Part shown: positions 12,725 through 64,000 of the stretch, one piece after another
How the letters are laid out: the number at the start of each line of letters is the position of its first letter
Numbering within the stretch: the stretch's first letter is position 1
From: Candidatus Woesearchaeota archaeon
Lineage (GTDB): Archaea > Nanobdellota > Nanobdellia > Woesearchaeales > GW2011-AR9
NCBI GenBank assembly: GCA_016181265.1
Contig: JACOZP010000008.1
Span: 132,583 to 196,582 of the forward strand
DNA: 64,000 nucleotides
Direction: 5' to 3'
Made by a program: the position numbers and the translations under genes
The notes under the pieces: generated by a model
Told to the model about the DNA's origin: nothing
What the model saw: the letters and a program-made list of their open reading frames with translations, nothing else
The model's database searches: none

Positions 12725-13258
12725 GTGATGAATAATTGGATATTTTCTTTGTTAAGAGCATTAAAAGAGGTATATTCCAGGAAGCAGTATTATATTTATT
12801 CTTTACTCTTTGCGCTCTTTATCTTTTCTCTTAATCCGCTGCTACGAAATTATAAGCTACTCAAAGCACAATTCTCTTGGTTGTTGGTATTGCAGTTAAT
12901 ACTAGCATCACCAGTTACCTCAGGAACAGTACCATTCGTATTGCTGACTATTCTTTCAATCTTATCAGGAATAGTCATGGCGTTTAGTGTTTATGTGATC
13001 CGACGACAGATTTCACAAGGAGTAAATCTCGGTCTGACGGGTGTAATTATAGGGATCGTAGCACCCGCTTGTCCTTCTTGTGCATTAGGCATCTTTGGGG
13101 TGCTTGGTCTGGGAGGGTTACTAACCATTCTTCCGTTTAAGGGATTAGAACTGGGATTTTTAGGTATATTCCTTCTGATCATTTCATTATTATATCTAAG
13201 CAAGAAGATTGAAGCAAAAGTTTGTGTTTTACCACTGAAGAAAGGAAGGAAGAGATGA
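12725..13258 (+). CDS. Membrane protein with intramembrane CPSC (CxxC) motif
   Basis: 177 aa, about 4-5 TM. GIVAPACPSCALGIFGVLGLGG lies in a predicted helix. No identifiable family. Confidence 0.4.
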   Translation: MMNNWIFSLLRALKEVYSRKQYYIYSLLFALFIFSLNPLLRNYKLLKAQFSWLLVLQLILASPVTSGTVPFVLLTILSILSGIVMAFSVYVIRRQISQGVNLGLTGVIIGIVAPACPSCALGIFGVLGLGGLLTILPFKGLELGFLGIFLLIISLLYLSKKIEAKVCVLPLKKGRKR

Positions 13259-38190: not shown

Positions 38191-39393
38191 TTAAGAGAGG
38201 TGCAATGACTTCTCTAGGATTTCTTTGAGTTTGGTAACGACTGATTCTTCCAAAGAGATGGATATTTGACGAGTTCGCCCGTACCGCCCTTTTGAAATGA
38301 TATTGGCATTGATAATCCCTAACATATCCAATTCAGCCAGGATATCCGAGACCCGACGTTGGGTAAGAACATTATAATTACTCTTTTTACACAGAGTACT
38401 ATATAACTCATAGATCTCCCCTGTAAATATTTGTTTTTGTGGCGATGAGACGAGGAGGAGAGTGTATAACACCAGCTGAAATTGTTTGGGTTGATTTGTA
38501 GCTGCATTAATAATCTTATCCGATTCTACACGATGTTCAGCTTCATCAAGATGGGTGATAGAAATGGTCAGAGACCCACTCCGTTCTGCAATTTCCCCAG
38601 CAACTCTCAAAAGATCTATCGCCCGACGGGCATCTCCATGCTCACGAGCGGCAAATGCAGCACACTTTTCGATAAGTCCAGCTTCAACAGTACCCTCACA
38701 AAAAGCTTTTGCTGCTCTTTTGCGAAGGATATCTTGAATTTGGATAGCATTATAAGGTGGAAAAATAATTTCTTCTTCAGAAAGACTACTCTTGACACGA
38801 GGGTCAAGATTTTCTGCAAAGATGAGATTATTGGAGATGCCAATAAGACAAATTTGAGAATGATGTAGTTCAGAATTGATTCTTGTTAAGTTATAAAGCA
38901 TCTCGTCACCGATTTTTTTGGTTAGTTGATCAACTTCATCGAGGACTAAGAGAATTAACTGTTTTTTACGTTCGACAAGTTTGTAAAAGATGTTATATAC
39001 TTCATCAGTAGGAAGACCGGTGGGAGGGATTTCTTGGCCAAGGAATTTGATCAATTGAGCGATAAGTCGATATTCAGTATCAGCCACGCGTTTTAATTTA
39101 CAGTTTAAATAGATAGTTTGAATGGGGATGTTATTTTTCTCAGCAATTTGACGCATGGAAAGAAGTATATAACGCACAGAAAGAGTCTTACCAGTGCCTG
39201 TCTTTCCATACACAAAAAGATTAGATGTACGTTCTAAACGTAATGCAGGAGCTAAAATGTTAGCTATTTCTTGGATTTGTTCTTCTCGGTAAGGTATATC
39301 CTCTGGATAATGAGAAGATAATAGTACCGACTTATCAACAAATAAAGAGTCTTTTTTTAGGAAGTTTTCAAAATAATTACCTATTTTAAGCAT
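38191..39393 (-). CDS. cdc6: Orc1/Cdc6 replication initiator
   Basis: 400 aa. Walker A GKTGTGKT. Walker B LVLDEVD. C-terminal winged helix. Immediately adjacent to a long AT-rich non-coding region. Confidence 0.9.
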   Translation of the reverse strand: MLKIGNYFENFLKKDSLFVDKSVLLSSHYPEDIPYREEQIQEIANILAPALRLERTSNLFVYGKTGTGKTLSVRYILLSMRQIAEKNNIPIQTIYLNCKLKRVADTEYRLIAQLIKFLGQEIPPTGLPTDEVYNIFYKLVERKKQLILLVLDEVDQLTKKIGDEMLYNLTRINSELHHSQICLIGISNNLIFAENLDPRVKSSLSEEEIIFPPYNAIQIQDILRKRAAKAFCEGTVEAGLIEKCAAFAAREHGDARRAIDLLRVAGEIAERSGSLTISITHLDEAEHRVESDKIINAATNQPKQFQLVLYTLLLVSSPQKQIFTGEIYELYSTLCKKSNYNVLTQRRVSDILAELDMLGIINANIISKGRYGRTRQISISLEESVVTKLKEILEKSLHLS

Positions 39394-39609
39394 AGAGACC
39401 CCCTTATTTCCTGTGGAAAATGATGATTCTTGGATAGGATATGATCAAAAAAGATGTGGTTTAAGATGGATAGGTTGATCAGTTGGAAGCTTTCTTATAA
39501 AGACTTTTAATTTTGAACAGGTCTATCTTAGAATATATACCAAATAGATAAAGATATTCTTTTACGGCACTTAAAAATGGTTAAATGTAATTAAAGAAAA
39601 TATTGAATA

Positions 39610-39624
39610 TTCCACTACAGTGGA
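39610..39624. repeat. ORB-like dyad TTCCACTACAGTGGA
   Basis: Inverted repeat TCCAC/GTGGA inside the candidate origin. Confidence 0.4.
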
Positions 39625-40025
39625 TAGTAGAGATATTACCACTTTTGATTTTAGGAAATTAATGTGGTTTTTATTATTTAACATTTATGATTTGTTATTT
39701 GTTATATTATTATTTACTATATAGAAAATAATAATAATAATAATAAAAATAAAAAGTTATGATAAAGAATAAATAATGATAAGTAAAAATATGATACTTA
39801 TTTGATAGTAAGATTGGTGAAGATAAATTCATGAATTAGATAAAAAATGTTATTATGCTCTTTGGTTTCTGAATGCATCAAACCATTGTTCAATGAGTGT
39901 TATTCCCTTTTTTAGGATATTTTCCTAATGTTGATTGCATTTAACAGTTTAGCCTATCATTCTTCTTGAACATTCCTCTCAAAATTTTTTATTAAATAAA
40001 TGTATGAAAAACCAATAGAAGACCA

Positions 40026-40040
40026 TTTTTCCATTTCCAT
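40026..40040. repeat. TTTCCAT tandem (TTTTTCCATTTCCAT)
   Basis: Shares the TTTCCAT core with the ORB-like elements. Confidence 0.4.
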
Positions 40041-40200
40041 AAGAAATATCATTAACTAGTTAAATGGTACTAATTTGTTGATTGAATTTTAGTCCCATTC
40101 TGCGCAGAGAACTGATCGTTGTCAGTTTTCTTGCGCTTTCAGACGTTTCCTGTATCCATAATTAAAGAAGATTTTACCTAGTTCATTAAATTTTTTCTTG

Positions 40201-40225
40201 TTTTCCATTAGAAACGATGGGGTGG
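40201..40225. repeat. ORB-like element TTTTCCATTAGAAACGATGGGGTGG
   Basis: Matches the archaeal origin recognition box pattern including the 3' G-string. Confidence 0.55.
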
Positions 40226-40312
40226 CGGTGGTTGATCAGGGATTTCCAATTATTTTAGGTTGACTTATTGTTAAATGCAATTATTTTGGCTGGTGCTTTC
40301 ATTTAATTAGTC

Positions 40313-40335
40313 TTTTCCATTAATTTCTAAGAAAT
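40313..40335. repeat. Direct repeat of TTTTCCATTA (TTTTCCATTAATTTCTAAGAAAT)
   Basis: 10/10 identity with 40201-40210. Partial dyad TTTCCATTAATTTCTAAGAAA. Confidence 0.45.
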
Positions 40336-40367
40336 GTTTATATAGTTTATATTGTGTTTTTCTACTT

Positions 40368-49071: not shown

Positions 49072-51966
49072 ATGAGAAAAAGAGGATTACTTATAGTACT
49101 AGTTATTGTTCTATTAATCTCTCTTACTATTAATATTTCTGCTGCGGATCCTTTAATGTCTATTGAGAAGAAATTAAACGATCAGAAAGTGCTGGCGTTA
49201 GGTAAAATTGTCAACGCAGCTTATTCCGCGGGTTGTGATGCAGGATCAGATGATGACTGTTGGTATGATGGGGATGGGGGGATGAAAGGTGGGGAAAATA
49301 TCGTTGTTGATAACAATCGGGTCGCTATTACTTTAGATGTTGTTACTCCTTCCACCATAATTACAGGTCATGGTGAGTATGAATGTGACAATGTGGGTGA
49401 TGATTTAAATGCATTAGGAAATAAAGGAAATTCTCAAGGTTGTTTTGTAGGCTTAATTGATAAAGATTCAGGGGATTATGACGATGGTGCAGTAGGATAC
49501 GCGGCGAAAGGCACAATCTTGGATCATCAATACAAATCCGTCGCTTTTGCAGGACGTTATACTGCTTGTGATGACGATGATGCAAATGATGCCAAGAAAG
49601 GCCTGGTTGAAGCTCGTTTTAAGACAGGTGGAGTCAACGGCCCAATGTATCTTTGTTCGGGGGATAGTCAATGGCATATCTGTAAAGATGATCGAGGAGA
49701 AGAAAATCCCCCGTATTACGGAACGTATAGTTATGGTGAAGGAAATAGCATCTATAATTGTAGCGCTAATGAACAAGATGTAGTGACTTGGATTAAGCTT
49801 CCAGGTGTCGATAATGATCATGATCTTTACACCGATTTAGCTGGCGATTGTCGTGACGATCCCACCAACGATCCGCAGTTTTGTAAAGTGATCACTACCG
49901 CTGATTGCAGCGGTGAAGTAGGAGCATTGAAATATGCTTCTTGTGCGGTCTGTATCAATCCTAGCCAACCAGAACGAGGAGGGGATGGCATCGATAACAG
50001 CTGTACTACTGGGAAGACTGGTGATAGTGTTCTTACTGTTGATGACAATATGGACTTGCCGTTGTATAAAGAAGTGTGTAATCAAGAATTTGAATTTAGT
50101 CCGGAGAGCAGCGAGCAGAACCGTTGTTGTGGTGATGACGGGATTAGAGATGTTGGCGCAGTGATCAATACACTCTCTGGTGAATACTTGTGTCTCAACG
50201 GTCAAGAGGGGGAAAAAGAATGGAAATGGATTTCTGCTGGTGTGAATAAGTTTACAATTTTTACAGTAAATAAAATTGCAGAAAGGTCCTATGATCTTGT
50301 CTCAAACGGAGAACGTTGGAAAGCGTGTTCTGCGAGTACGGAGGGGAAACTCGAAGCGTCTGCTTTTTTCCCGAATGATGCAGCGCGATTTTATTGCAGT
50401 TCTACTGATGATGAAGCAGTCTGGGCGGATTGTGCGAAAGTATCGGAGAATGGTATAAAGCAAAGAACTGTTGGTCAAGGTGTTTTCGATCTGATGAATT
50501 TTGTTAAAGATAGTTCGATCCATTTCAGCAGCCAAGGCGGATTTACTGCCTACGAGATGATCTATGGAAAGCGTTATCCTTCTTTTGCTGGTTATGATTA
50601 TCTCGATGTCTATTTTCAATTTACGGATGAAACGTTGGAAGAAGGAGTAGGACTCCGTCTGGATGCATGGTCTACTAAGGGGAAGATTGCAACAGAAAAT
50701 GTGATGGGATATGTCATCAATGGAGCTTCGCTAGTTGGTAAGAAAACATATCATGCACAGATTCCCATGCAAGGATGGAGGGATGTTACAATTATTTCTT
50801 TTGTCCCAGTTAAAACTACTTTAGAATTGAAGAATGTCCATCTTTCTAAAAAGGGAAATGATCCCGTCTGTGCGGGAAATCTCTGGCTGGATTCTCTTGA
50901 TGCAGAAGATCTTTCGGTTGAAGAAGGTCAGATGTGCACTGCTTTAGGGTTAGCGTGGCTAGGTGATAAAGTAGAAGATCCTTCACTGCGCTGTTGCGGT
51001 AATACGGCTGGTGAATATGGTGTCGGTGACGAGAAGGGGTGTTGGAATTCACAGAGTGTTGATATTGGTCAGAGGATGACAAATGTTCAATTTGAATTAA
51101 CGTACGGAAAGGGAGAGTGGACGTATGGGACGACTGCCCAAAGTATCTCTGCTGATGTTGTTATCTCTTCTCCAACGGAATCTAAAACTGTTCATTGTTC
51201 ACAAACTGTCGATAGTTCTCAACCAACAAAATTATGTGAAATTGAATTTAGCCTCTCACAATTTAGAGATGCTACTCTCATCAATGTAAATGGTAGCCGA
51301 GCTTATTTTGCTGATCCTCTTCAACCAGAAGCGTATGATGAATCGTCTACTTCTCTAAAATATGATGACCTTCTTTCTATTGGTAAAGAGAAGAGTATTT
51401 TTTATGTGATGGGTGTGGCGGATACTCTTACTCAGGCTTATTCTTTTAATCCTTCGGTTACTGAAACATTGGCTTATTCATGTGATTCTTCGCCTTGCCG
51501 GATCCATCTGAAAGGGGTTCCTCCTTATACGATCCACAATAATTTTCCACAAAAATATGATCTCTACTTCGTGACAGGTGTTGACGGGAAAGAGATTCGT
51601 ACTCTCATTGATAAAGAGAAAACCGTGTATGCTCCCGATGGTTGGTTAGAGGTTGATGCTGTTCCGTTACAGGTGCTTTTTGCGGGAACGGCATTTCTTG
51701 GTTGCGGCGACACTACTTCTTTTGGGGCTGTTTCGCTAGTGTCTGAGAAAGTATGTTTTGCACAGAAAGTGGATACCGATGGGTTCTATTGTGATCCTTT
51801 CGGCAATTGGAAGAACGATGAGCTTCCGATGACGAGCTATGATGCAGAGAATAACATCCAACTAGTCCCTGGAATAGTGCACCAACCAGGAGATCGTAAT
51901 CACACTTCCTCTATCGTCTTTGGTAGGAATCTTTTAGAGAATCCTATGTTAAGTTTAACAAAGTAA
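49072..51966 (+). CDS. Giant secreted cysteine-rich protein A (964 aa)
   Basis: Signal peptide MRKRGLLIVLVIVLLISLTINISAADP. MopE-like Asp/Cys motif (DNDHDLYTDLAGDCRDDPTNDPQFC). RCCGDDG and RCCGNTAGEYG motifs shared with protein C. Many Cys. Confidence 0.7.
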   Translation: MRKRGLLIVLVIVLLISLTINISAADPLMSIEKKLNDQKVLALGKIVNAAYSAGCDAGSDDDCWYDGDGGMKGGENIVVDNNRVAITLDVVTPSTIITGHGEYECDNVGDDLNALGNKGNSQGCFVGLIDKDSGDYDDGAVGYAAKGTILDHQYKSVAFAGRYTACDDDDANDAKKGLVEARFKTGGVNGPMYLCSGDSQWHICKDDRGEENPPYYGTYSYGEGNSIYNCSANEQDVVTWIKLPGVDNDHDLYTDLAGDCRDDPTNDPQFCKVITTADCSGEVGALKYASCAVCINPSQPERGGDGIDNSCTTGKTGDSVLTVDDNMDLPLYKEVCNQEFEFSPESSEQNRCCGDDGIRDVGAVINTLSGEYLCLNGQEGEKEWKWISAGVNKFTIFTVNKIAERSYDLVSNGERWKACSASTEGKLEASAFFPNDAARFYCSSTDDEAVWADCAKVSENGIKQRTVGQGVFDLMNFVKDSSIHFSSQGGFTAYEMIYGKRYPSFAGYDYLDVYFQFTDETLEEGVGLRLDAWSTKGKIATENVMGYVINGASLVGKKTYHAQIPMQGWRDVTIISFVPVKTTLELKNVHLSKKGNDPVCAGNLWLDSLDAEDLSVEEGQMCTALGLAWLGDKVEDPSLRCCGNTAGEYGVGDEKGCWNSQSVDIGQRMTNVQFELTYGKGEWTYGTTAQSISADVVISSPTESKTVHCSQTVDSSQPTKLCEIEFSLSQFRDATLINVNGSRAYFADPLQPEAYDESSTSLKYDDLLSIGKEKSIFYVMGVADTLTQAYSFNPSVTETLAYSCDSSPCRIHLKGVPPYTIHNNFPQKYDLYFVTGVDGKEIRTLIDKEKTVYAPDGWLEVDAVPLQVLFAGTAFLGCGDTTSFGAVSLVSEKVCFAQKVDTDGFYCDPFGNWKNDELPMTSYDAENNIQLVPGIVHQPGDRNHTSSIVFGRNLLENPMLSLTK

Positions 51967-52590: not shown

Positions 52591-52950
52591 ATGAAAATAG
52601 AAGTTAGTATTACAAAAGGAAAGTTTTGGACTCTAACAGCGATGTTAGTCTTTGTTGTTAGTATTTTTGTATTTGCGGCTAAACCAACTCCTGTTGGCCA
52701 TAGTGTTGATGAGGTAGAAGGGCTGAGTGAGCTTCAGAAGAAAGTTAATGATCTTGCTGCAAAGAGTGAATGGCCCGAAGGTTCTTACTGTGTGTGGAAG
52801 AAAGGAGATTGTCCAACTGGGTTTAGTGAGGCAAGTTTACATATTGATGCTGAAGATGATGGGGATTGGAATACGGGTGGTCCTATCGGTGATAGTAAAG
52901 AAGGTGGGAAAGATAATGTTGACATTTATGCGTGTTGCAAAACTTCATGA
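52591..52950 (+). CDS. Small membrane-anchored/secreted Cys-containing protein
   Basis: 119 aa. N-terminal TM (FWTLTAMLVFVVSIFVFAA). CVWKKGDCP...YACC. 4 nt ATGA overlap with the next gene. Confidence 0.45.
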   Translation: MKIEVSITKGKFWTLTAMLVFVVSIFVFAAKPTPVGHSVDEVEGLSELQKKVNDLAAKSEWPEGSYCVWKKGDCPTGFSEASLHIDAEDDGDWNTGGPIGDSKEGGKDNVDIYACCKTS

Positions 52951-55304
52951 ACCAAAAACCAATACTCCTCTTTGTACTTTTTCTTTCTAGCATTTCGTTT
53001 GCTGCAGCATTAGAGTGTTCTGTCTCGCAGACTGCTTGTAATCAACCGGGAGAAGCAATTATTTTGTGCCTCTCTGATCAGGCAAACGCACATGCCGAAC
53101 TCCCCCAGAGCATTGGCGGTGTGCAAAGCTGCTCCAATTATCAGTGGAAATTATGTTGTAAAGATATGTTTGTAAGTAATGATTGTAGAGCCGATAATCA
53201 GATTGCTTGGCTCGCAGCTCCGACGAATTCTCACGCAGCGCAGAGCAGTGGTTCAACATATTCTATTCCTGTCTGTGTTAATGGTTTACGTGAAACAACA
53301 TGTTCGACCTCTTCTTTTTCTGGCTCAACGTGTGTTCTTTCATTTTCAAGCAAAACTAATGCACATATCGCAAGTTGTGATGAGTCAAGTTATAAGAATC
53401 GAGTTTATTGCGCGGTAAATTCAGATAATGACAAAGATGGTTATGCGGCGAATATCGATTGTGATGATGATAATAAAAATGTAAATCCTGCAGCGGAAGA
53501 GATCGGCGATGGTTTGGATAATGATTGTGATGGTCTGATCGATGGTGATGATTCTGACTTGCTTCTCCTCCCAAAAGGGTGGTATCAGGTTTCTACGGAA
53601 TTAGATAAAGATCAATTTGGTTCCTATACTGCTGAAGGGGTTGAAGTGAAGACTTTAGAAACAGGCCAGAATGTCTTTACACTCACCGATTCAGGAAGAA
53701 AAGGTCTTCTTTCTAAGAAGATAAAGATTGAGAAAGGGAAAGAGTATGTTGCGAGAGGAGTGTTGTCATGTGAAGGGACAATACAGCTCGTCTTTGATGA
53801 TACTGTTGCGGAGGAGGAAGAAAGCGGCTTTTTGGGGTTTCTGTTGGGAGTTGACCTGGTAAATTCAGCAACAGGAAAAGATTCTCTTTCTGTCGTTGCA
53901 AATTCTGGCGAAGCAGAATACGCAGCGTTGTTTGTCGATGTTAAAGGAGAGAATTGTGAAGTGCGTGATCTACAGATTGATCTGAAAGGAAAAATACAAC
54001 CTGTCGAGTACAATGATGCGGTCCAACCAAGATCTTTACCTATCGAGCCGACGACAACGTTTGCTGCTGCTGCCTGCTGTCCTCAAAATACCTGTTGGAA
54101 TGGTTTTTCTTGTGTTGAGAATATGCGCGACCAGACTTTCTTGTCAGAGATAATCACAGAAAAAACAGTATACCAATGCATTGACGGCAACTGGGTCTTC
54201 CGCGCGAAATTATATGATTGGAACAATGAGGAATTTGGTTCCTGTCCCAATGAAGGGCAGTGTTTCGTCTTGAGTTCGCAGAAAGATGCTTCGCCGGAGG
54301 CGAAGGCTAGTGATTTTTACTCGGGAAAATATCCTTTGTGTGTCAATAATGGGGAGTATATTTTTGATCACTATTGCCATGAGGGAAATTGGGTGACACG
54401 GACGCAGCTTGCTGCGGAGTACTTGCTCAAAGCCGCTCCAAGTACTGATTTCACACTTTACTGTACTAATCCTCGCGATGCGCTAGTGAGTTTGGAGAAC
54501 CAAGATCAATTTGTCTTAGGGGACCCGGTGGGTGTTGTGTCTGGACAAGCGGGTGGTCTGTTGGCGGTGGATAAGCCTCAACCAACACGTATCTGTTTCC
54601 CCGACCTGACGGAATCAGGAAAAATGCTTGTTGATGACGCTGATAATACTTGCATCAATAATGTTTGTCTTTTACAAGATACTGATGGAACTATTGCTTT
54701 TGCCACAACGTTGAACGAGGATGTTAATGATGTTACCGGTTCATTCGTGCAAGCGTTAGGGATTTCACCTGAGAACTTCGCTCAGTCTTGTAGCGGTGAA
54801 GGGGAGTATAAGACTTGCGTCATCAATGGTATAGACGGTGAGATTTATTATTCTCCAACATTAAACGCATTGATCTATAGTAAAGATGGTGTGTCGTTCG
54901 ATCCAGGCATGTTTGAGACGATCATCTCTTTCTTCACAAAATTATTTGGTGGAGCAGTTGATGAGACTACTCTCATCATTCCAGCAAACAAAGCGGTTCC
55001 TTTCATCTATCTCTCTAAAAGTGGAGATAAATCCGCTCAAGCATTTGTGGAAGATAATGGCAGAGATGCAGCGGGGAATCATAATCTTACTCTAGTCGCT
55101 AATTATTCTGGGTTCAAAACCCCAATCTGTCTCTTTGTGAATCATCTGGCGGCTCCCTCGTCTGCTGGTCAGGGGGTGTTAGGTGAATTAGCAGGGCAAA
55201 GTGGTTTTGTCTGTGTTGATAAGGATGAAATACAAGAAATTGTTGCGACAAAAGATGTTGGTTATCTTTGGCCGCAATTAACGGGCAGGTTGAGGGTCGA
55301 ATAG
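52947..55304 (+). CDS. Giant secreted cysteine-rich protein B (about 785 aa) with MopE-type putative metal-binding motif
   Basis: Signal peptide (ILLFVLFLSSISFAAALE). DKDGYAANIDCDDDNKNVNPAAEEIGDGLDNDCDGLIDGDD matches the DxDxDG...DCDD.N..VNP.A.E.CDG.DNDCDG consensus. Numerous Cys. Confidence 0.7.
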   Translation: MNQKPILLFVLFLSSISFAAALECSVSQTACNQPGEAIILCLSDQANAHAELPQSIGGVQSCSNYQWKLCCKDMFVSNDCRADNQIAWLAAPTNSHAAQSSGSTYSIPVCVNGLRETTCSTSSFSGSTCVLSFSSKTNAHIASCDESSYKNRVYCAVNSDNDKDGYAANIDCDDDNKNVNPAAEEIGDGLDNDCDGLIDGDDSDLLLLPKGWYQVSTELDKDQFGSYTAEGVEVKTLETGQNVFTLTDSGRKGLLSKKIKIEKGKEYVARGVLSCEGTIQLVFDDTVAEEEESGFLGFLLGVDLVNSATGKDSLSVVANSGEAEYAALFVDVKGENCEVRDLQIDLKGKIQPVEYNDAVQPRSLPIEPTTTFAAAACCPQNTCWNGFSCVENMRDQTFLSEIITEKTVYQCIDGNWVFRAKLYDWNNEEFGSCPNEGQCFVLSSQKDASPEAKASDFYSGKYPLCVNNGEYIFDHYCHEGNWVTRTQLAAEYLLKAAPSTDFTLYCTNPRDALVSLENQDQFVLGDPVGVVSGQAGGLLAVDKPQPTRICFPDLTESGKMLVDDADNTCINNVCLLQDTDGTIAFATTLNEDVNDVTGSFVQALGISPENFAQSCSGEGEYKTCVINGIDGEIYYSPTLNALIYSKDGVSFDPGMFETIISFFTKLFGGAVDETTLIIPANKAVPFIYLSKSGDKSAQAFVEDNGRDAAGNHNLTLVANYSGFKTPICLFVNHLAAPSSAGQGVLGELAGQSGFVCVDKDEIQEIVATKDVGYLWPQLTGRLRVE

Positions 55305-55305
55305 G

Positions 55306-55605
55306 ATGAAGATATTAAAACTGATCATTATCGTCCTGCTTGTTTTGTTTTTCTTCGGGGCTTTTTCTCAATGGAAATATTTTATCAAACCGATCTCCGA
55401 AGAGTGTGGCCAGTTTAATCTTAATCCTGATGTTTCTCATCAGAAGAGTTGTGATTGCAGCGGCTTCTCTTTTTCTGAGATTGCAAAAGGTTCAACTAAC
55501 AACTATTGTTTTGGCACCTGCAAGATGTGTGAATGTTCTAACTACTATCTGGAAAATCAAACCAGAAAGATTGTGGATTGTTCTCAGTTTGGTCAAGACG
55601 ATTAA
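55306..55605 (+). CDS. Small secreted Cys-rich protein
   Basis: 99 aa. Signal peptide MKILKLIIIVLLVLFFFGAFS. CDCSGFSF...CFGTCKMCECSNYY. Preferred over the overlapping 5' extension of the 55340 ORF. Confidence 0.5.
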   Translation: MKILKLIIIVLLVLFFFGAFSQWKYFIKPISEECGQFNLNPDVSHQKSCDCSGFSFSEIAKGSTNNYCFGTCKMCECSNYYLENQTRKIVDCSQFGQDD

Positions 55606-55651
55606 TCTCCTAACAAACTTTTATAAGGATAAACTCTTTATTCTAAAAGAT

Positions 55652-58144
55652 ATGAACAAAAAGAGGGATGCTTTTCCTATTTTGCATGCTAAAAAAGGTC
55701 AGATTACTATCTTCATCATCCTCGGCTTAGTGATTCTTACTGTTTTTCTCTTTTTGATCTTCATCGTAAACACCAGCCAGCGCGCGAACCTAGAAGCAGA
55801 AAAAGCAGAAGCATTCGACAGTATTTATTCTAAAGAAGGATTATATTTGTATCTGGATACGTGTTTGAAAGACTCGTTGACTGAAGCGGTTGCCTTGATT
55901 CAAAAACAGGGAAGACTTTGGCGAGATATCAATCCTGGTGGCTTTGTTCCGTTTGAAGAGGGTAAAACAGGAGTAACAGTCAATGGGGTTCCCATTGCGT
56001 ACGGGTTAATCTATAATCCTTTTGAACTTTCACCAGAGGCGTACCCTTGTGCTTCCGAAGAAGGAAAACCAACATTTTGTTCATATCACTATCCTGATTC
56101 TACGGTCCGTTTTGGTGAATTAGTGTTGTCGTTGTCAACTGTTGAAGATGATCTTCGTCGCTACCTCAACCAGAAAGTTGTTGATTGTGCAGAGAAACTA
56201 GCTGTTGAAGAGATAGCACCCGATGCAGTTGTAGAGATCTCCAATCCTCAGTTTACTGTTTCGCTGCAGAGCAATGGTATCGCTGTTGATGCCACTATCC
56301 CTTTTTCAATGGTGATTCGGGGAATCCATTATTTTACAACTTCCTCTCTCAAGTTCTTTTATGACACTCCGCTGCGCGAGGTTGTGGAGACTGCAGCTTA
56401 CTTTCCTCTTCAAGCCGATCGGGATCACATCGATTTTTCCTATGATGAAAATACTTTGATTGCGCAAGATTATGTTGTTGGTTCTAAAGAGGAACTGAAG
56501 GGTTCTCTCGGCCAAAGTATGTGTACTTTCAGTGAGGGTAGTGATTCTTCTTATTTCATGTGTACAAAGAAGTTAGTAGTCGGATATTCTTCTTTAGGAT
56601 TAAAAATGAACTTTCAAAATTTAGATAATGGAGATACGCATTATACCTTCATTTCTCCAACAGTACACTATACATTTGCTCGGCAAAATCGTCCACCGGC
56701 TTTAGATTATGTTGCGCGTTATGCTTGTCCGAGAGGAGAATATGATTATCTTGCAATTGCCGGAGATCCTGCGTTAGGCACGATTGATATCACAGTAACT
56801 GCACGAGACCCGGACGAACAATTACCTACGGTGAGTGTTATTGATATTTCCGAAACTCCTCTATCGGCGGACAGCGATCCTCTTACTGAGCGTTTTGTAG
56901 CTTCTAGCCTCAATCCAGGACAATATTTGTTGAAAGCGGCGGCGAAAGACCCTGCGGGATTGGAAGATACGCAGGAGGTACGCGTAGTAGTAGATAATCC
57001 CATCTCTACTTCCATTTCTGTCCATCATATGTATCCTGACCTGATGACTGCAACTTCAGAAGAAATTGTTCTTGTTTCCCCAGAAGATCCCATCACAGTT
57101 GAGATGAACCTTCCTCAGAAATCATTAACCGAGGATCTTGGAGAATTTCGTTTTTCATTCTTGACGGATCAACTAGAAACATTATTTGACTTGATCCCTG
57201 ACCAAGGTTCTCCATTTGCTTTCAACAGCTATTCTTTTGTTTTTCCTTATGGTTTTGAGGGGAAAGATTTGATTAGAGAGATAACAGACACTTCACAATT
57301 TAAATACGCTCCTTTCACCAGCAATGTTAAGCAAGGCACATTTACTTTAAATTATAATATCAATTATTGTGGTTATCATAAACAATCCAGTGAAAGTTCG
57401 GTCCCTGTTATTGTAACTCCCTGTTTACCACATCAAAATTCTGATCACCCCTTTCCTTATCCTTATCAGGATTATGTGGATAAAGATCATGATGGTATTG
57501 CAGATAGGGACACTGATGGGGAACTGGTCCTAGAAAAATTAGAAGATCCGTTCGATGCTAGTCACGCTTGTTGTCTTGGCGACCCCACTGTGCCGGCAGC
57601 TTGGAAAATCGCTTCTTTAGAAGACAATGTTGGCTGTTTTAGAGATATGGTTGATGAGGAGGAGTCACTAGGTTGCTTTGGCGATGTTGATGCTAAAGGG
57701 AGGGGATATCTTTTAGAAAAAAGAATCACTAGAACTACTTTTTGTTCAGGATCAAGGGGAAATGTTTGTGATGGTGAGGAAAAGTTCGAAGCCGAACCTC
57801 AACAAAAATGTGGCATTAAAAGCCAAACAGAATGTTCCCTCGTCGCCCAAGAATGTCAAGGGCTTGCTCCTTATACAAAAGGTGACGGCTTCTGGTGTTC
57901 TGGAGATGTAGGATGTGGAGATACAAAGAGTAATGCTTGTACTTCTGAAATTGTCACAAACGTGAAAGGATTAAGTTTTGATTACGTCCAATCACAACAC
58001 GAGCAGTATAGTTGCGGCTGTACTTCTAAAGAAAAAGATCGAACTTGTCTCAGATTAAGTGATGAGGTTATCGGTACCTGTCGAAGAGGGACTATTCCTG
58101 GCACTTCCATAATTAATCCTCTTTCTTCTTATGCGTGTAGGTAA
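55652..58144 (+). CDS. Giant Cys-rich surface protein C (about 830 aa) with type-IV-pilin-like (class III) signal peptide
   Basis: N-terminus MNKKRDAFPILHAKKG|QITIFIILGLVILTVFLFLIFIV: basic region, Gly at -1, Gln at +1, about 24-residue hydrophobic stretch, no AxA site. Ig/cadherin-like middle. C-terminal Cys-rich region with HACCLGDP (compare CCGDDG in protein A). Start placed at the in-frame ATG 55652 after the overlapping small gene. Confidence 0.65.
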   Translation: MNKKRDAFPILHAKKGQITIFIILGLVILTVFLFLIFIVNTSQRANLEAEKAEAFDSIYSKEGLYLYLDTCLKDSLTEAVALIQKQGRLWRDINPGGFVPFEEGKTGVTVNGVPIAYGLIYNPFELSPEAYPCASEEGKPTFCSYHYPDSTVRFGELVLSLSTVEDDLRRYLNQKVVDCAEKLAVEEIAPDAVVEISNPQFTVSLQSNGIAVDATIPFSMVIRGIHYFTTSSLKFFYDTPLREVVETAAYFPLQADRDHIDFSYDENTLIAQDYVVGSKEELKGSLGQSMCTFSEGSDSSYFMCTKKLVVGYSSLGLKMNFQNLDNGDTHYTFISPTVHYTFARQNRPPALDYVARYACPRGEYDYLAIAGDPALGTIDITVTARDPDEQLPTVSVIDISETPLSADSDPLTERFVASSLNPGQYLLKAAAKDPAGLEDTQEVRVVVDNPISTSISVHHMYPDLMTATSEEIVLVSPEDPITVEMNLPQKSLTEDLGEFRFSFLTDQLETLFDLIPDQGSPFAFNSYSFVFPYGFEGKDLIREITDTSQFKYAPFTSNVKQGTFTLNYNINYCGYHKQSSESSVPVIVTPCLPHQNSDHPFPYPYQDYVDKDHDGIADRDTDGELVLEKLEDPFDASHACCLGDPTVPAAWKIASLEDNVGCFRDMVDEEESLGCFGDVDAKGRGYLLEKRITRTTFCSGSRGNVCDGEEKFEAEPQQKCGIKSQTECSLVAQECQGLAPYTKGDGFWCSGDVGCGDTKSNACTSEIVTNVKGLSFDYVQSQHEQYSCGCTSKEKDRTCLRLSDEVIGTCRRGTIPGTSIINPLSSYACR

Positions 58145-58239
58145 GATATATCAAAATTTGATCGCTTATTTTAAACATTTTCTAGACGAGAACGTTCACC
58201 AAACATTTATAAACGTTAAAGCATTTATGAAATTGAATC

Positions 58240-61200
58240 ATGAGAACCCCAAAAAGAGGTTTAGCGTTAGCTTCTGCTTTATCGTTCCTAGTGATATTTC
58301 TGAGTGTTTTCATACCTGCTGTTTCTGCGCAAGAAACCAATCCAACACAAGCAAAAGGGTGTTATTTTTATTCGCAAGGAAGTCTTGATGTTTCTTGTAA
58401 AACCGGCGGGGTCACTGAAGAAGTAGCGCAAGAGGACTGCGCGGCACATAGCGGTTGTGTTCTTCCTAATTGGTTTAAAGCAGGGTCGACCTGTGCGGAT
58501 ATTCCCGAATGTAAAGTTGTCGCTTGTGATGCGGCTAAATATGCTTGTCAGGAAGTTCCTTTAGGCACGTGTGTCCAAGCTGGTGGGAAAGAGATTACTG
58601 CTGAGAACAAAGCGGCAGAGTGTACAAAAGGCTGTTGTGTTGTCCCCCTGCCTGGTGGTCCCTTCTGCGCTCCTGAATTAGTCTTTAAATCGACATGCGC
58701 AGAGATTGCAGCATCGAAACAAGGAACAGCAAGTTATAAGTTTTATAATCCGGACTCGATGACATTGGCTCTTTGTCAACAGCAATATTGCAAAGCCGCA
58801 GTTGCGGAAGGGAGCCTGATAGGAATTGTAAAAGATCCTACCGGACAGGCCATCGCAGGCGCGACGATCTCAATCTTAGGCACTGTTTCTTCTACTCAAA
58901 CTAGTGCTACGGGAAGTTATTCTCTTCTTCAACTTGTGCCCGCTACCTACTCAGTAAAAGTCTCAAAAGCAGGTTATATGGAGGTAATCAAAAGCGTATC
59001 TGTGTCTGCGGGAGATGCAACTACTTTTGATTTCCAATTACAACCAGCAGCAGGCGCATCATCTTTACGTGTCACTGTCCGTGATACTGTACAGAAACTG
59101 TTGCCGGGGATTACAGTTACGTGGAAAGGTCCTGTTCAAGGAACGACCAAGACAGATAGCCAAGGAACTGCTCTCGTTTCTAATATTCCCGCTGGTGAGT
59201 ATACTTTACTGGTGAGCGCGGTGGGATATGTTTCCCAGGAACAGAAGAGAGTTATCGGCGCAGGAGAGACCGTCGTTGATGTTACTTTACTAAATGCCGT
59301 CTTTCAAGGAGTGCAAGGAACAACATTTGTAAACGGTGAAAAGACATATGGTGTTTCGATCTATGTTGATGGTTTTTTCAAAGCTAAGTCTCAATATCCC
59401 GATGGGAAATATAGTGTCTCTCTGCCTGCCGATGGGAAAGAACACACTGTTTCTGCGACGTACCAGAGCTTTGTCTCTTCGATCGAAACAGTAGCGGTTG
59501 CAAAAGAACAAACAATACAGAAAGATCTCTATCTGGTTTCGTTAAAAGGGGAGTGTGCTGTGGATGGTCCTTCTCCTCAGAAGAATGTTCAAGTGTTCAC
59601 TGCTTCTTCGGTATTAGGAGAAAAAAAGGTCCGTCTCGTCTGGGAAAAACCGTGTCCTGAAGTAGCAAGTTATACGTTACAAAAATCAAGAGGAGAAACA
59701 CTTCTAGCAACAAATACCATTTCTGGATTGGAGACCATCTACGTTGATGATAAAGAGTTGATGTGGAAAGAAACATATTCTTACACTCTTGTCGCTCACT
59801 TTGATTCGGGCTTATCATCAGAGAATGCCGTGACCGCAACAATCACTTTAGGTGATGAGGAATGTGAAGGCAGATTTGTTGATGCAACTAGTACTTGGTC
59901 TTCATTCTGTCTTGTAAATGAAAGACAGACGGTTTACACTTGTACAAATCAGAATATACTCACACCTGCACAGACATGTTCTTCTTTAGGAACGACGTGG
60001 TATTGTGCTCAGACAACGGGCACAACGGCAAGCTGTAAAGATGCGGGAATCTGTTCTGTCAATACCGCTCCTTTTGGTTTATATGCAGTTGAGGACGTAT
60101 GCTATGGACAGGACGACGAAAAATTCTGTTATTATGATTACACAAAAAATACTATTGCAAACCAATGTGCCAGCTGTGCAACTGTGACAAGCTGTTTCGA
60201 TTACCGGAGCAGGGGTGCATGCGAGAAGAATAATTGTGTCAGTTCTCAATGCGCGTGGGTGGATGTTGCATCCAACCCTCCACTTGTTGATTATAGTTAT
60301 CTGTTCTCATCTGACATCTATAGTCCTTTAGTGACCTCGACTGAAACGGGTGCTGGTTATTGTGTTGAGAAGGAATATGACAGTGACGAGAAGTGTTCTC
60401 TCTGTAGCTCTAGTTCGAGCTTATTTGAGAATTACTTTTGTACTCCTAATGTGTGTTCAAGTCTCGGTCGCTGTTTTGCTAATCCTGAACAGACAAGCTG
60501 CGAGCAGTGTAAAGAGAGCCCAGCACCGGATGCGACCTGTTACCGCTACACTTCAGAAACGGAATGTGTTGGAAAAGGAGGAATAACAAAAGATGAATTT
60601 GGGCGTCTTTCGTTTTCTGGCGATCGCTGTTCCTGGGGTCGTTGTTCTTGGGATGGGGCAAGCTGTATTAAAGATGGTAATGCTGATAAAAAGGATGATT
60701 GTGCTCTCGTGAAAGGCAGCTCAGTCGCTTGTGCTGTGGATAACACTCCACCCACAACAACTATGTCCGGCGCTTTGGTAACGACACAATCCCCGCTCGT
60801 CACTTTCACTGCTGACGATTCTTCTGCAAAAGCAGGTCAGACGAATCCTCTTAAAACTTTATCCTATTGTCTAAGTTCCATCGGCGGACCAAATGTGTGT
60901 ACTGCCGATCAATTTGTTTCAGTAGAGTTTAAGGGATTGACTCCTACGGAGAGCATTCCATTTAATATCTCTCAATTTCCTACGTTGGGTGGAGCAAAGC
61001 CAGAGGGAAATATCTTCACTATCTATTTCTATTCGGAAGATGTTTTTTCCAATCGTGAGCAAATCCAGGAAGGAGTATTATATATTGATACTGTTTCTCC
61101 TCAATTTACAGTTGTTGAAGAAGTTGCAACTACCGGGACGGTCTCTCAGCTGAATGTTCATCTTGAAGAGGTCAATGAACCAATTAGTTGTACTTTTTCG

Positions 61201-64000
61201 TTACAGCAGGTCTTACCTCTCGGTGCTGTGCAGACAACGACTGTTCCTCTGGAGGTTCTCGATAAGAAAGCATTGTTTTCCGACCTGAAAGGGATTAAGT
61301 ATGAGTTAACAACAACGTGTACGGATAAGCATAATAACATTAACACCGTGACTGAAGCATATTCGTTCGACCTAGAGCCGAATATTAATATTATCTCTCC
61401 TTCAAAAAATGAAGTTGTTGTGAAGACTTCTGTTCTCTTTAAAGTGGAAACAACGATAGGTTCTACCTGCGTGTTATATGATGCAGCAACTAACCAGAAA
61501 ATCGCCGATTTCGTGACTGATGAGGACGGGTTTAATCACGGGACGGAGCCTATCTCTCTGGCAGAGAGAAAATATGTGGCGGAACAGAAAGTTGTTTGTA
61601 CTGAACTGCTTACGGGAAAAACATACGAAGATTATTTTGATTTTACGGTAGATACTTCTCCTCCTTCTGTTATGATCGAACTTCAAGAAGACTCTAGGGT
61701 GGTACAACATAAGGACACAGGGTGGAAAGAATCGTTTATCACTTCAGCTAATGTCCATCTGGCTTGTTCTTTGAATGGTCTAGCCTGCCAACAAATCTAT
61801 TATTGTCTTGGTGAAGCATGTACTCCTGCCGATCTTTCGGTGTTTAAATCGTACACTTCCTCTTTTGTGGTCGAACAAAGCACAAAGATCTGTTATTATG
61901 CGACACGTGAAGGGGAACAATTGTATAACAATATCTCTTGTGGATTCATCGGGATAGATGGTTTTGGTATCACGTTAGATCTGCCACCTAGTTTTACTTA
62001 CAATGATGAAGTTTGGGGAGTGAGCGCATCTCCTACATTTGATTGGCAGTTCTTCACAAAAGTTCCTACTCAAGAATGCAAGTTTGATTTTATCTCTTCG
62101 TTTACGTATGATGCGCTGGCAAAATATAAATGGAAAGAAAAAAATAGCGGTGAAAAATATCTTTTCGGTAGCTTTCCAGAAGGTGTCTTTTCATCGTTTA
62201 ATCCTAATGGTGGAATCAAAACTGTGTATGTCGCCTGTAAAGATGGGACTGGTGAAGTTAGTCCTATCCAGAAAATGAATTTAGAATACGATCCAACTCC
62301 TCCGGAAATAAAGACTGTGAGCAGTTCCCCAGACCCCGTAATTGAAGGAATAAATACTTTACTCTCTGTTTCGACTGATGATAAGACGACGTGCGTATTT
62401 ATCAATGTAGAAAATGGGAAAACTTACTCTTTTCCTGGGAAGGAGGAACATGTCTTAGATACAACTCACGAGACACTTTTTTATGTCGATGATTTCATCG
62501 GTGATAAGAAAGAGTATGTTCTTAGTGTGATGTGTGAAAACGGTGCTGGACTGAAATCTGCAGTGCAAAATCTAACTATCTCTGTCGATTACACACAAAA
62601 AGGCAGTATCACTTCAATCTATCCTCAAAAAGCGTTTGTTCAGAATGGCCCTCTTTCTGCCGAAGTTATTACCTCAAAGAGCGGCTATTGTGAGCATAAG
62701 ATTGGTGAGGGATATCTTCTCTTTAGCGAAACTAATGGTAATGTACACAAGACCATACTTAATGGCACTGGAGAAGGAGCATATACGCTTCCATTTCGTT
62801 GCTTCTTTGGCGACACTGAACAGACGGGGGAATTTAGTTACACCATCGACAAGCAGCCACCTATTATCGAGTCTATCGATGATGGGATAGTGACGTGTGG
62901 TAAAGATGAGTGGGCAGTTCTCGTGAAGACAAATGAATCTGCACTCGCAAATTACTCCTACAGCGTTTATGCAGCTACCGGTTCGACGATACTTACTGGC
63001 AACAAAACCTCGTTCAGTAAAAGTGATTTACTCTTGGAAAGTTCGGCAGGTCCAGATTCTTCTTTGGTAGTTCCTCTGTCCAGCTTTATTCCGTCGAGCC
63101 AAAATACTACTACAGGTTTTATTATCTCAATCAAAGCAATTGATGCTGCAGGAAATATTGGGCCCGTTAAAGATAGCGATGGAGTGATCGTTTCCAATTC
63201 TTCCCATCCAACTTGCCTTAAAGATTCTAAACTACCTTCGGTTACTTTTTCAACAGTGGACAGCACTTCTTGTTCTTCACGGCTGGTCTCAATGAGTTGT
63301 GGTGATGATACGGGTTGCCAGAATTATCTTTATGGTGTTGGAACGACTGTTGATTCTTGCATTCCTTTGAAACAATACAATGGTAAGAACATTGAAATCA
63401 CTTCTACAAGTTATCTCTGCTATGCAACAAAAGATGCAGTAGGGCAGAACAAGTCGAGTGCCACGCAAGTTATATTTGAGGATAAAGATAGTGATGGAGT
63501 TGCTGATACTTGTGATAGTTGTCCTGAGACTTTGGCAGGTAAGATTGCAGATAGTCAAGGTTGTGCCGAAGGCCAAGTTACTTTACTTCAAGGAGAAATT
63601 GATAGTGATGGGGATGGGCTTCCTGATGCTTGGGAAGAGCAATTCAACTCCTTGACTTGTCAGCTTTCTTCAGTCAGCAAGGATAGTGATGGTAACAGCA
63701 TCTCCGATGGACTGGAAGATTATGATAGTGATGGCAAGAATAACTATGAGGAATATACTTCTGGAAAGAACCCTTGTGTTGCAGAGGTTTCTATCTCTCA
63801 GGACGAAAAACCAGCAGTGCCTGTTTCTTTCCCTACACCTTCGTTTAGCACAGCGTGGGTACTGTTGATCTTGGGGATCATCTTTTCATTTGGAGGATTT
63901 GGTTATCTTCTCTATTCTTACTTAGCATCTGGAAAGAGGACTACCTCAGGACCACAGCGTGAGTTGCCTGCAATTAAGTTGGCTGCTGCAGCTCGTACAC
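58240..64000 (+). CDS. Giant multidomain surface adhesin-like protein D (more than 1920 aa; 3' end beyond window)
   Basis: Frame open from ATG 58240 to the window end (no +strand ORFs listed in this frame). Signal peptide MRTPKRGLALASALSFLVIFLSVFIPAVSA. Cys-rich N-terminal module. Two CarboxypepD_reg-like domains (GIVKDPTGQAIAGATISILG...; VTVRDTVQKLLPGITVTWKG...). Repeated Ig-like modules. Thrombospondin-type-3-like DxDxDG repeats (DKDSDGVADTCDSCPE, DSDGDGLPDAWEE, DSDGNSISDGLEDYDSDGKNNYEEY). Hydrophobic C-terminal TM (AWVLLILGIIFSFGGFGYLLYSYL). Confidence 0.7.
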   Translation, partial: MRTPKRGLALASALSFLVIFLSVFIPAVSAQETNPTQAKGCYFYSQGSLDVSCKTGGVTEEVAQEDCAAHSGCVLPNWFKAGSTCADIPECKVVACDAAKYACQEVPLGTCVQAGGKEITAENKAAECTKGCCVVPLPGGPFCAPELVFKSTCAEIAASKQGTASYKFYNPDSMTLALCQQQYCKAAVAEGSLIGIVKDPTGQAIAGATISILGTVSSTQTSATGSYSLLQLVPATYSVKVSKAGYMEVIKSVSVSAGDATTFDFQLQPAAGASSLRVTVRDTVQKLLPGITVTWKGPVQGTTKTDSQGTALVSNIPAGEYTLLVSAVGYVSQEQKRVIGAGETVVDVTLLNAVFQGVQGTTFVNGEKTYGVSIYVDGFFKAKSQYPDGKYSVSLPADGKEHTVSATYQSFVSSIETVAVAKEQTIQKDLYLVSLKGECAVDGPSPQKNVQVFTASSVLGEKKVRLVWEKPCPEVASYTLQKSRGETLLATNTISGLETIYVDDKELMWKETYSYTLVAHFDSGLSSENAVTATITLGDEECEGRFVDATSTWSSFCLVNERQTVYTCTNQNILTPAQTCSSLGTTWYCAQTTGTTASCKDAGICSVNTAPFGLYAVEDVCYGQDDEKFCYYDYTKNTIANQCASCATVTSCFDYRSRGACEKNNCVSSQCAWVDVASNPPLVDYSYLFSSDIYSPLVTSTETGAGYCVEKEYDSDEKCSLCSSSSSLFENYFCTPNVCSSLGRCFANPEQTSCEQCKESPAPDATCYRYTSETECVGKGGITKDEFGRLSFSGDRCSWGRCSWDGASCIKDGNADKKDDCALVKGSSVACAVDNTPPTTTMSGALVTTQSPLVTFTADDSSAKAGQTNPLKTLSYCLSSIGGPNVCTADQFVSVEFKGLTPTESIPFNISQFPTLGGAKPEGNIFTIYFYSEDVFSNREQIQEGVLYIDTVSPQFTVVEEVATTGTVSQLNVHLEEVNEPISCTFSLQQVLPLGAVQTTTVPLEVLDKKALFSDLKGIKYELTTTCTDKHNNINTVTEAYSFDLEPNINIISPSKNEVVVKTSVLFKVETTIGSTCVLYDAATNQKIADFVTDEDGFNHGTEPISLAERKYVAEQKVVCTELLTGKTYEDYFDFTVDTSPPSVMIELQEDSRVVQHKDTGWKESFITSANVHLACSLNGLACQQIYYCLGEACTPADLSVFKSYTSSFVVEQSTKICYYATREGEQLYNNISCGFIGIDGFGITLDLPPSFTYNDEVWGVSASPTFDWQFFTKVPTQECKFDFISSFTYDALAKYKWKEKNSGEKYLFGSFPEGVFSSFNPNGGIKTVYVACKDGTGEVSPIQKMNLEYDPTPPEIKTVSSSPDPVIEGINTLLSVSTDDKTTCVFINVENGKTYSFPGKEEHVLDTTHETLFYVDDFIGDKKEYVLSVMCENGAGLKSAVQNLTISVDYTQKGSITSIYPQKAFVQNGPLSAEVITSKSGYCEHKIGEGYLLFSETNGNVHKTILNGTGEGAYTLPFRCFFGDTEQTGEFSYTIDKQPPIIESIDDGIVTCGKDEWAVLVKTNESALANYSYSVYAATGSTILTGNKTSFSKSDLLLESSAGPDSSLVVPLSSFIPSSQNTTTGFIISIKAIDAAGNIGPVKDSDGVIVSNSSHPTCLKDSKLPSVTFSTVDSTSCSSRLVSMSCGDDTGCQNYLYGVGTTVDSCIPLKQYNGKNIEITSTSYLCYATKDAVGQNKSSATQVIFEDKDSDGVADTCDSCPETLAGKIADSQGCAEGQVTLLQGEIDSDGDGLPDAWEEQFNSLTCQLSSVSKDSDGNSISDGLEDYDSDGKNNYEEYTSGKNPCVAEVSISQDEKPAVPVSFPTPSFSTAWVLLILGIIFSFGGFGYLLYSYLASGKRTTSGPQRELPAIKLAAAART

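Follow-up and report, generated by a model that had tools for sequence, protein, structure and literature searches.

Gene and start site of protein C

Near the end of a 64,000-nucleotide (nt) stretch of the genome of a Candidatus Woesearchaeota archaeon (GenBank assembly GCA_016181265.1, contig JACOZP010000008.1, positions 132,583 to 196,582; the whole stretch is hereafter called the window) lie the genes of four giant proteins, A, B, C and D, in this order on the forward strand. This study concerns C, a protein of 830 amino acids (aa) whose N-terminus resembles the class III signal peptides of type IV prepilins. An initial annotation had quoted the N-terminal sequence of C and proposed such a signal there. 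The quoted sequence matched exactly the product of an open reading frame (ORF) of the window (Table 1). Its translation begins MNKKRDAFPILHAKKGQITIFIILGLVILTVFLFLIFIVNTSQR, and the protein is 100% identical to HYT55_03365, annotated in GenBank at 830 aa in a Candidatus Woesearchaeota metagenome-assembled genome (MAG).

A TATA box, TTTATAAG, precedes the ATG of C, and the same element is found at -29 to -33 from the start codon of C in 63 of 76 homologous loci. Judged by its sequence, it is presumably the archaeal promoter element of C itself. The presence of a conserved TATA box ahead of the ATG indicates that this codon is the real start of C. An in-frame ORF of 934 aa that opens with TTG at 55340 was rejected as spurious; it overlaps the upstream gene, and it is backed by none of the homologues. 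C appears to possess a strong promoter of its own and a leaderless or very short-leader mRNA. If C has its own promoter, the gene cluster described below would not be a single operon.

Conservation of the N-terminus

The predicted leader of C is basic, with four Lys, one Arg and one Asp (five basic residues and one acidic). It is followed by a hydrophobic run of 23 residues, and the next charged residue is R44. The junction K15-G16↓Q17-I18 (arrows denote predicted or known cuts) satisfies a FlaFind-like motif rule, which was reportedly formulated by Szabo et al. in 2007 as [KR][GA] followed by [ALIFQMVED][ILMVTAS]. Running such a rule had been proposed as a check in the initial annotation; across all six frames of the window it gave only three matches, namely the N-termini of A, C and D.

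Among 5.8 billion proteins, the search for homologues of C yielded 55, almost all of them 810-900 aa long; one MopE motif aside, none has a Pfam domain. Those with a taxonomic name belong to Woesearchaeota, Nanoarchaeia or unclassified archaea without exception. A scan of the GTDB species representatives detected 200 relatives. Statistics on the N-terminus were taken from 120 distinct homologues, which without exception come from Woesearchaeota/Nanoarchaeota. The leader varies freely in sequence among them and spans 3-43 aa, with a median of 15 and a mean net charge of +3.7. The residue at -1 is Gly in 68, Ala in 51 and Ser in one, and positions -2 and -3 are mostly Lys or Arg. On the other side of the junction, Q+1, F+5, I+7 and G+9 are each present in 120/120 and T+3 in 119/120, which gives the consensus G/A↓Q-[IV]-T-[IV]-F-x-I-x-G. 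The uncharged run that follows the junction measures 20-35 aa across the family. It had been noted at the outset that C lacks an AxA site for signal peptidase I (SPase I), and this was borne out by the family: no site with small residues at -3 and -1 is conserved after the hydrophobic run (position +25 is small in ~43% of the homologues), and a core of 20-35 aa exceeds the ~7-15 aa, followed by a conserved small-x-small motif, that characterizes SPase I substrates.

Prepilin-type processing is recognized by a variable leader that ends in a small residue at -1 and adjoins a conserved mature N-terminus, as seen here. Neither a discarded Sec signal nor a plain anchor is likely, because neither would conserve the junction in this way. 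The conservation of the hydrophobic stretch also suggests that it is retained in mature C. From these sequence comparisons we consider it very probable that C carries a genuine class III signal, with the cleavage presumably after G16.

A detector for [GA]Q followed by a hydrophobic stretch was positive in 77 of the 83 C homologues to which it was applied, versus 6 of 458 unrelated ORFs from related loci, so chance does not account for the pattern. It was positive in 0/112 members of the D family and in 1/54 of the A/B family. A and D had been regarded as ambiguous in the initial annotation, and the family comparison tips the balance toward the Sec route. An N-terminal KKRG is conserved in both families (window 49072-49150 and 58240-58330; loci L004, L011, L012, L037 and L058) and is FlaFind-positive on paper. 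The hydrophobic core is not conserved in either family, and an AxA-type site stands ahead of a conserved mature start; these two properties ruled out A and D as clear class III substrates. They are probably Sec/SPase I substrates, an account that gives no reason for the conserved KRG.

Gene cluster around protein C

C belongs to a gene block that is strictly collinear across more than 20 divergent loci of Woesearchaeota, among them L087 (7850-17320), L100, L119, L151 and L153. The order is A/B-C-(D')-D-P1-P2-P3-P4-P5-P6-P7-X1-X2-(P8 or X8)-X3-X4-X5-X6-X7. An Rpp30-like gene and an RPA-like gene flank the block, the latter at the end after X7, and the 3' part of the block (P6 onward) was charted by a metagenome scan seeded with the P4 family. 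The 1.56-Mb Woesearchaeota contig JBAYIU010000001.1 has this cluster as well. A and B are fused in many lineages into a single protein of 1500-1780 aa. In some relatives a Cys-rich protein of ~355 aa is encoded between C and D, and giant D of relatives measures ~2040-2155 aa.

The products of the small genes after D nearly all begin with a basic leader, Gly or Ala, and a hydrophobic helix. At least 12 co-clustered families besides C share this type of N-terminus, with [KR][KR][GA] ahead of the helix; P1-P5/6/8 number 74-119 members each, and the smaller families 11-31 each. P7 is 46-50 aa long. Of the 15 non-giant families, C included, 13 have a FlaFind-like site in almost every member. The exceptions are X1 and X5, which have plain N-terminal transmembrane (TM) helices and few members with the basic-G/A site. 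Gln stands at +1 in P2, P3 and P4, and in the majority of P1 and P5 proteins; these five families are unrelated to C, and the [GA]Q detector was positive in 35/45 (P1), 43/45 (P2), 37/37 (P3), 28/31 (P4) and 9/9 (P5). We regard the gene context as the strongest evidence for the prepilin-like reading of C.

Pfam and NCBIfam profiles gave no pilin or class III family for A, B, D or ten downstream proteins, either at full length or as isolated N-termini. The products of the collinear block carry no family-level pilin-type annotation in these databases, and the small cluster families have no Pfam or NCBIfam match of any kind. No description of the A/B-C-D-P-X cluster was found in a literature search.

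The window ends within D. An exact look-up of the C protein returned no record, and the downstream genes of the same genome were recovered by two other routes. A homologue of P4, P0061, is HYT55_03390, which lies on the same 201,692-nt contig as C, five locus tags after it. The Logan contig L086 matches window 56468-64000 without a single mismatch over 7533 nt and extends past the window end. On this contig D ends at window-equivalent position 64341, and P1-P4 follow directly at 64347-66995.

One marine lineage (L115, 10618-11394) encodes an extra protein of 258 aa between P4 and P5, MKKRG↓QITIFIVLGILLL, followed by a secreted protein of 494 aa. The N-terminal motif of the 258-aa protein is the same as in C, which shows this type of N-terminus in use on a far smaller protein as well.

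The signal of giant D is of the Sec type (AVSA↓QE). The protein contains two CarboxypepD_reg domains and weakly matches Kustd1514, an anammox S-layer family. Bacterial TSP3-type Asp-rich repeats lie near its C-terminus, as does a single TM helix (1872-1892), and the protein ends in a Lys-rich cytoplasmic tail of 140 aa. D is a candidate S-layer protein or envelope giant.

Predicted structure of protein C

C was modelled with AlphaFold2 from an alignment of 44 sequences (mean predicted local distance difference test score (pLDDT) 88), and the N-terminal module (residues 1-290) was also modelled alone, with moderate quality (pLDDT 74). A helix of 43 residues begins at the predicted cut, and a second helix spans residues 61-86. 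The N-terminal helix is pilin-like in the model; a pilin-fold head is not demonstrated. Behind an alpha/beta module, residues ~290-590 are modelled as a string of adhesin-type immunoglobulin (Ig)/cadherin-like domains, and the top Foldseek matches of C in the PDB were protocadherins, the staphylococcal adhesin SraP, Salmonella SiiE and the S-layer protein SbsB (E 4e-9 to 1e-6). The family alignment contains 15 invariant Cys, and the whole of protein C has 26. BLASTP showed no sequence similarity of C to A, B or D.

Table 1. Positions of protein C, its parts and the genes around it, with the junctions of the P proteins. Positions refer to the window unless L086 is given; arrows mark predicted cuts.
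Feature	Position	Strand	Description
Giant A	49072..51966	+	964 aa, secreted; probable Sec signal MRKRG...ISA↓AD; syntenic with C
Giant B	52932..55304	+	790 aa, secreted, Cys-rich; MopE-type putative metal-binding motif PF11617 (E=1.5e-7)
Small protein between B and C	55306..55605	+	99 aa, Cys-rich; N-terminal hydrophobic segment; not assigned to a family
TATA box of protein C	55620..55627	+	TTTATAAG; 32 nt 5' of ATG, read from sequence
Protein C ORF	55652..58144	+	ATG start, 830 aa; N-terminus MNKKRDAFPILHAKKG↓QITIFIILGLVILTVFLFLIFIV
Predicted class III leader, M1-G16	55652..55699	+	MNKKRDAFPILHAKKG; predicted cut after G16
Continuous N-terminal helix, residues 16-58	55697..55825	+	Pilin alpha1-like; AlphaFold2: H16-58 (full), H14-58 (second model)
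Hydrophobic N-terminus of predicted mature C, Q17-V39	55700..55768	+	QITIFIILGLVILTVFLFLIFIV; conserved across family
N-terminal alpha/beta module, residues 59-285	55826..56506	+	Fold unrecognised; AlphaFold2 secondary structure
Tandem beta-sandwich (cadherin/Ig-like) domains, residues ~290-590	56519..57421	+	AlphaFold2 pLDDT ~90; invariant NRPPAL motif
Cys-rich C-terminal region, residues 591-830, plus stop codon	57422..58144	+	Family alignment
Giant D	58240..64000	+	Cut by window end; full length 2033 aa (L086 1773-7874)
P1 of the window's genome	L086		TTG start; GKKGLGVG↓QVFVYIVAALTF
P2 of the window's genome	L086		KRG↓QLDLPFNWIYVLIAG
P3 of the window's genome	L086		KRG↓QIQMTETIAVLFIFF
P4 of the window's genome	L086		KKG↓QMEMVGLVVIVLL
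P1 family			~180 aa; KKG-x-G-V-G↓QVFVFI
P2 family			~370 aa; KG↓Q-x-E-x-T-F-N-W-I-Y-I-L-I-A-G
P3 family			~170 aa; KG↓Q-x-x-M-T-E-T-I-A-V-L-F-I-F-F
P4 family			~180 aa; KG↓QME-x-I-G-L-V-V-I-V-I-L; six invariant Cys
P5 family			~116 aa; KG↓QGLSLNVIIVAALAL

Discussion

For DPANN archaea, the Woesearchaeota included, a life in attachment to host cells is the prevailing view. The account of C that we favor, with moderate confidence, is that it is a prepilin-like precursor, cut by an A24 peptidase encoded elsewhere, and that the mature protein bears an adhesin module as a low-copy subunit of a surface structure similar to type IV filaments. C would insert in the membrane with its basic 16-residue leader on the cytoplasmic side. 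A class III signal peptidase of the A24 family (PibD/FlaK/EppA type), encoded elsewhere in the genome, would cut after Gly16, so that mature C would begin with Gln17 and retain the conserved helix QITIFIILG... as its N-terminus. The retained helix would pack C together with at least 12 pilin-like proteins of the cluster (P1-P8, X2-X4, X6 and X7) into a type-IV-filament-like structure on the cell surface. From the size of C, and from its cadherin/Ig-like and Cys-rich domains, its most likely role would be that of a modular, low-copy minor pilin, with an adhesin module on display at the tip or close to it. The earlier idea of a large pseudopilin or tip adhesin fits the adhesin-type domains of the model. 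The small P5 would be the likeliest bulk subunit, and D a C-terminally anchored giant of the envelope. Since most of the cluster genes carry the same signal, the cluster of ~20 genes probably builds a pilus-like surface or attachment structure.

Among the closest known counterparts are the Epd pilins that Methanococcus maripaludis encodes in its archaeal type IV filament 'system 1' (clade 1). EppA cuts these pilins at RA↓QI, KG↓QV, KG↓QL and KG↓QI, and Gln at +1 is required (PMC4371748). C shares the KG↓QI processing site and the +1 Gln. Many minor pilin-like genes are grouped in the Epd loci as in the Woesearchaeal cluster, and large adhesin-like proteins are encoded in the same loci (PMC4858521). 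The EppA-like site, the junction that is invariant in ~120 homologues behind a variable leader, its recurrence in P1-P5 and the predicted helix that starts at the cut together uphold the class III signal that the initial annotation had assigned to C. The two systems also differ. The Woesearchaeal cluster is without genes for EppA, the EpdL ATPase or the EpdJ/K platform, and its families are unannotated and confined to Woesearchaeota/Nanoarchaeota. Epd pilins are ~70-200 aa long, in contrast to the 830 aa of C.

Large proteins with prepilin-type signals have precedents elsewhere. The Sulfolobus binding proteins are, like C, large non-pilin extracellular proteins with a prepilin-type signal and a hydrophobic N-terminal helix that is kept. 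They bind solutes, however, and are encoded beside ABC transporters, whereas C has adhesin-type and Cys-rich domains and is encoded among pilin-like genes; their PibD sites consist of K/R-A/G followed by I, L or S, without the obligatory Gln of C. Large FlaFind-positive proteins have also been linked to PilB4C4 of Haloferax volcanii. In gene content, the cluster resembles the subsystem 4G loci of Pyrobaculum and Thermoproteus, which hold several minor pilins and two large proteins (Makarova et al. 2016, PMC4858521; 2026 TFF preprint). One giant of the Pyrobaculum 4G loci is S-layer-like with a C-terminal TM helix and is matched by giant D; the other bears a signal peptide and may be an adhesin or minor pilin. 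Conserved cysteines mark nearly all components of these loci, and adhesin-like giants rich in Ig domains occur there. Unlike the Woesearchaeal cluster, the 4G loci carry a secretion ATPase, a TadC-like platform and a MinD-like ATPase. The 4G loci come from another phylum, and no sequence relationship to the cluster was detected.

Bacterial modular or tip subunits (PilB/PilC of Streptococcus sanguinis, GspK, and minor-pilin/PilY1) carry a bulky adhesin module on, or in association with, a pilin-type N-terminus, and there is room for such a module only at the filament tip or in low copy, as we propose for C. The bacterial proteins have the motif G↓F/M-x-x-x-E with N-methylation, PilD-type processing and pilin-fold heads; a pilin-fold head was not detected in C.

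Several results weigh against a filament subunit of known type. No pilin or class III model of Pfam or NCBIfam matched C, at full length or, even at E<=10, as an isolated N-terminus. The best profile match to isolated N-termini was PF13400 (TadE/G-like), at E=0.069 and 13.9 bits versus a cut-off of 22.3 bits, and PF04021 (Class_IIIsignal, DUF361), the family of the Epd comparison, did not match C. Position +5 of C is the invariant Phe and not the Glu that is typical of EppA substrates, Epd pilins included, and of bacterial pilins. Foldseek gave no PDB match to residues 1-290 at E<=1e-3, pilins included, which is a weak negative given the pLDDT of 74. The assembly machinery was equally elusive. 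Neither a secretion ATPase, a FlaJ/TadC platform nor an A24 peptidase was found among the ORFs of the 64-kb window by Pfam or in the cluster or its flanks by precomputed Pfam assignments of the neighbors, and none came up when 2.27 Mb of related loci were screened for Walker-A motifs and multi-TM proteins. Two papers report the genes flaI, flaJ and flaK for most Woesearchaeota MAGs (PMC8407392; PMC11606122). FlaK of M. maripaludis, however, does not cut substrates with Gln at +1 (PMC4371748), and a flaK annotation alone is therefore no guarantee that C is processed. In a groundwater study that is the source of several of the related MAGs, He et al. described type IV pilus components as missing from DPANN genomes.

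The main rival explanation draws in part on the finding that none of the loci has genes for an assembly ATPase or a platform within the cluster or close to it. C might be cut by a class III signal peptidase and yet not polymerize; it would be anchored by its helix in a fixed envelope or pseudopilus-like complex with the cluster proteins and D, comparable to the sugar-binding proteins of Sulfolobus (bindosome). The cluster lies between housekeeping genes (Rpp30-like and RPA-like) and is present in 200 GTDB species representatives, as would be expected of a core part of the envelope more than of an accessory pilus. D as a C-terminally anchored, S-layer-like giant would suit such a complex, and non-pilin substrates of class III peptidases are well documented. 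However, the helices of at least 12 small proteins are conserved in a family-specific manner, and the tiny P5 and P7 (46-125 aa) resemble filament subunits. Several archaea, moreover, encode pilins apart from pilB/pilC, as in the case of H. volcanii pilA1-6 (PMC4371748), and the ATPase and platform genes of the Woesearchaeal system may likewise be encoded elsewhere. We consider a processed but non-filamentous complex rather unlikely, and the filament account is retained.

It is less likely still that the N-terminus of C is an uncleaved signal anchor of a type II single-pass protein, with the GQITIF motif serving helix-helix contacts in a membrane complex. Such an anchor would agree with the lack of a peptidase shown for this genome, of a match to any curated class III or pilin model and of a pilin fold in the head domain, and X1 and X5 of the same cluster do have plain N-terminal TM helices with few basic-G/A sites. 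Yet it would leave unexplained why Gly or Ala is kept at -1 in 119/120 homologues, with basic residues at -2 and -3, an invariant Gln at the start of the run and a leader free to vary, and why the same junction recurs in unrelated neighboring families; the motif of C is, in addition, that of proven EppA cleavage sites. An ordinary Sec signal removed by SPase I past the hydrophobic stretch is highly improbable: T, S, V or A is common at +23 and S or G occurs at +25 in some homologues, but the run of 20-35 residues is too long for a typical SPase I substrate, the would-be -1 residue is small in only the ~43% given above, few parts of C are as conserved as the hydrophobic segment, which is unexpected for a discarded signal, and the AlphaFold2 helix is unbroken to residue 58.

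With C taken as a prepilin-like subunit, the kind of signal is a known one, and what is new are these families, the modular architecture of 830 aa and a collinear cluster free of machinery genes. More tentatively, and as a possibility rather than an expectation, the ~20 genes might encode an unrecognized surface organelle that is common to the Woesearchaeota, such as an apparatus for host attachment or cell-cell contact, with 12-15 pilin-like subunits and three giant Cys-rich proteins. Because the cluster genes are separate from dedicated ATPase, platform and peptidase genes, this organelle would be assembled by borrowed FlaI/FlaJ/FlaK of the archaellum type or by an undescribed mechanism. If true, such a reading would overturn the published view of DPANN archaea as lacking type IV pilus components. 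No Woesearchaeal archaeon is known to be in culture. A cluster rich in prepilin-like proteins and present in 200 species representatives provides concrete candidate genes for an attachment apparatus, and [KR][GA]↓Q followed by a hydrophobic helix may serve as a search rule for such genes. The cluster proteins also represent testable substrates for +1-Gln-specific archaeal prepilin peptidases outside the methanogens.

Other features of the window

The rest of the window, as judged by eye, encodes typical archaeal housekeeping proteins (GyrA, PCNA, PolD, Orc1/Cdc6, MCM and TBP among them), in agreement with the Woesearchaeal origin, and Pfam searches of its ORFs confirmed TFE, RNase J and others. 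An AT-rich intergenic region at 39394-40367 (guanine-cytosine (GC) content ~0.33) shows a change in the sign of the GC skew and lies beside an Orc1/Cdc6-like gene (38191-39393, minus strand). Copies of the 13-nt element TGTTAAATGCAAT, some direct and others inverted, lie around an AT-only stretch (39690-39760) of this region, which is probably a replication origin with boxes like the origin recognition boxes (ORB).

Two observations concern extracytoplasmic proteins encoded away from the cluster. A DsbA-like thioredoxin gene (11350-12060) adjoins genes for a DoxX membrane protein (12170-12721) and an unassigned membrane protein (12725-13258); these genes may form an extracytoplasmic disulfide-forming system, in keeping with the many Cys-rich surface proteins. 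On the minus strand, 4676-6556 encodes a secreted protein of 626 aa with a lamin-tail domain just under the Pfam cut-off (33.2 versus 34.3 bits), a surface protein outside the cluster.

Finally, many of the GTDB representative MAGs that carry the cluster (L010, L013-L016, L020, L035, L036, L064 and others) are titled 'uncultured Methanosarcinales archaeon', which is probably a taxonomic mislabel in the deposited assemblies.

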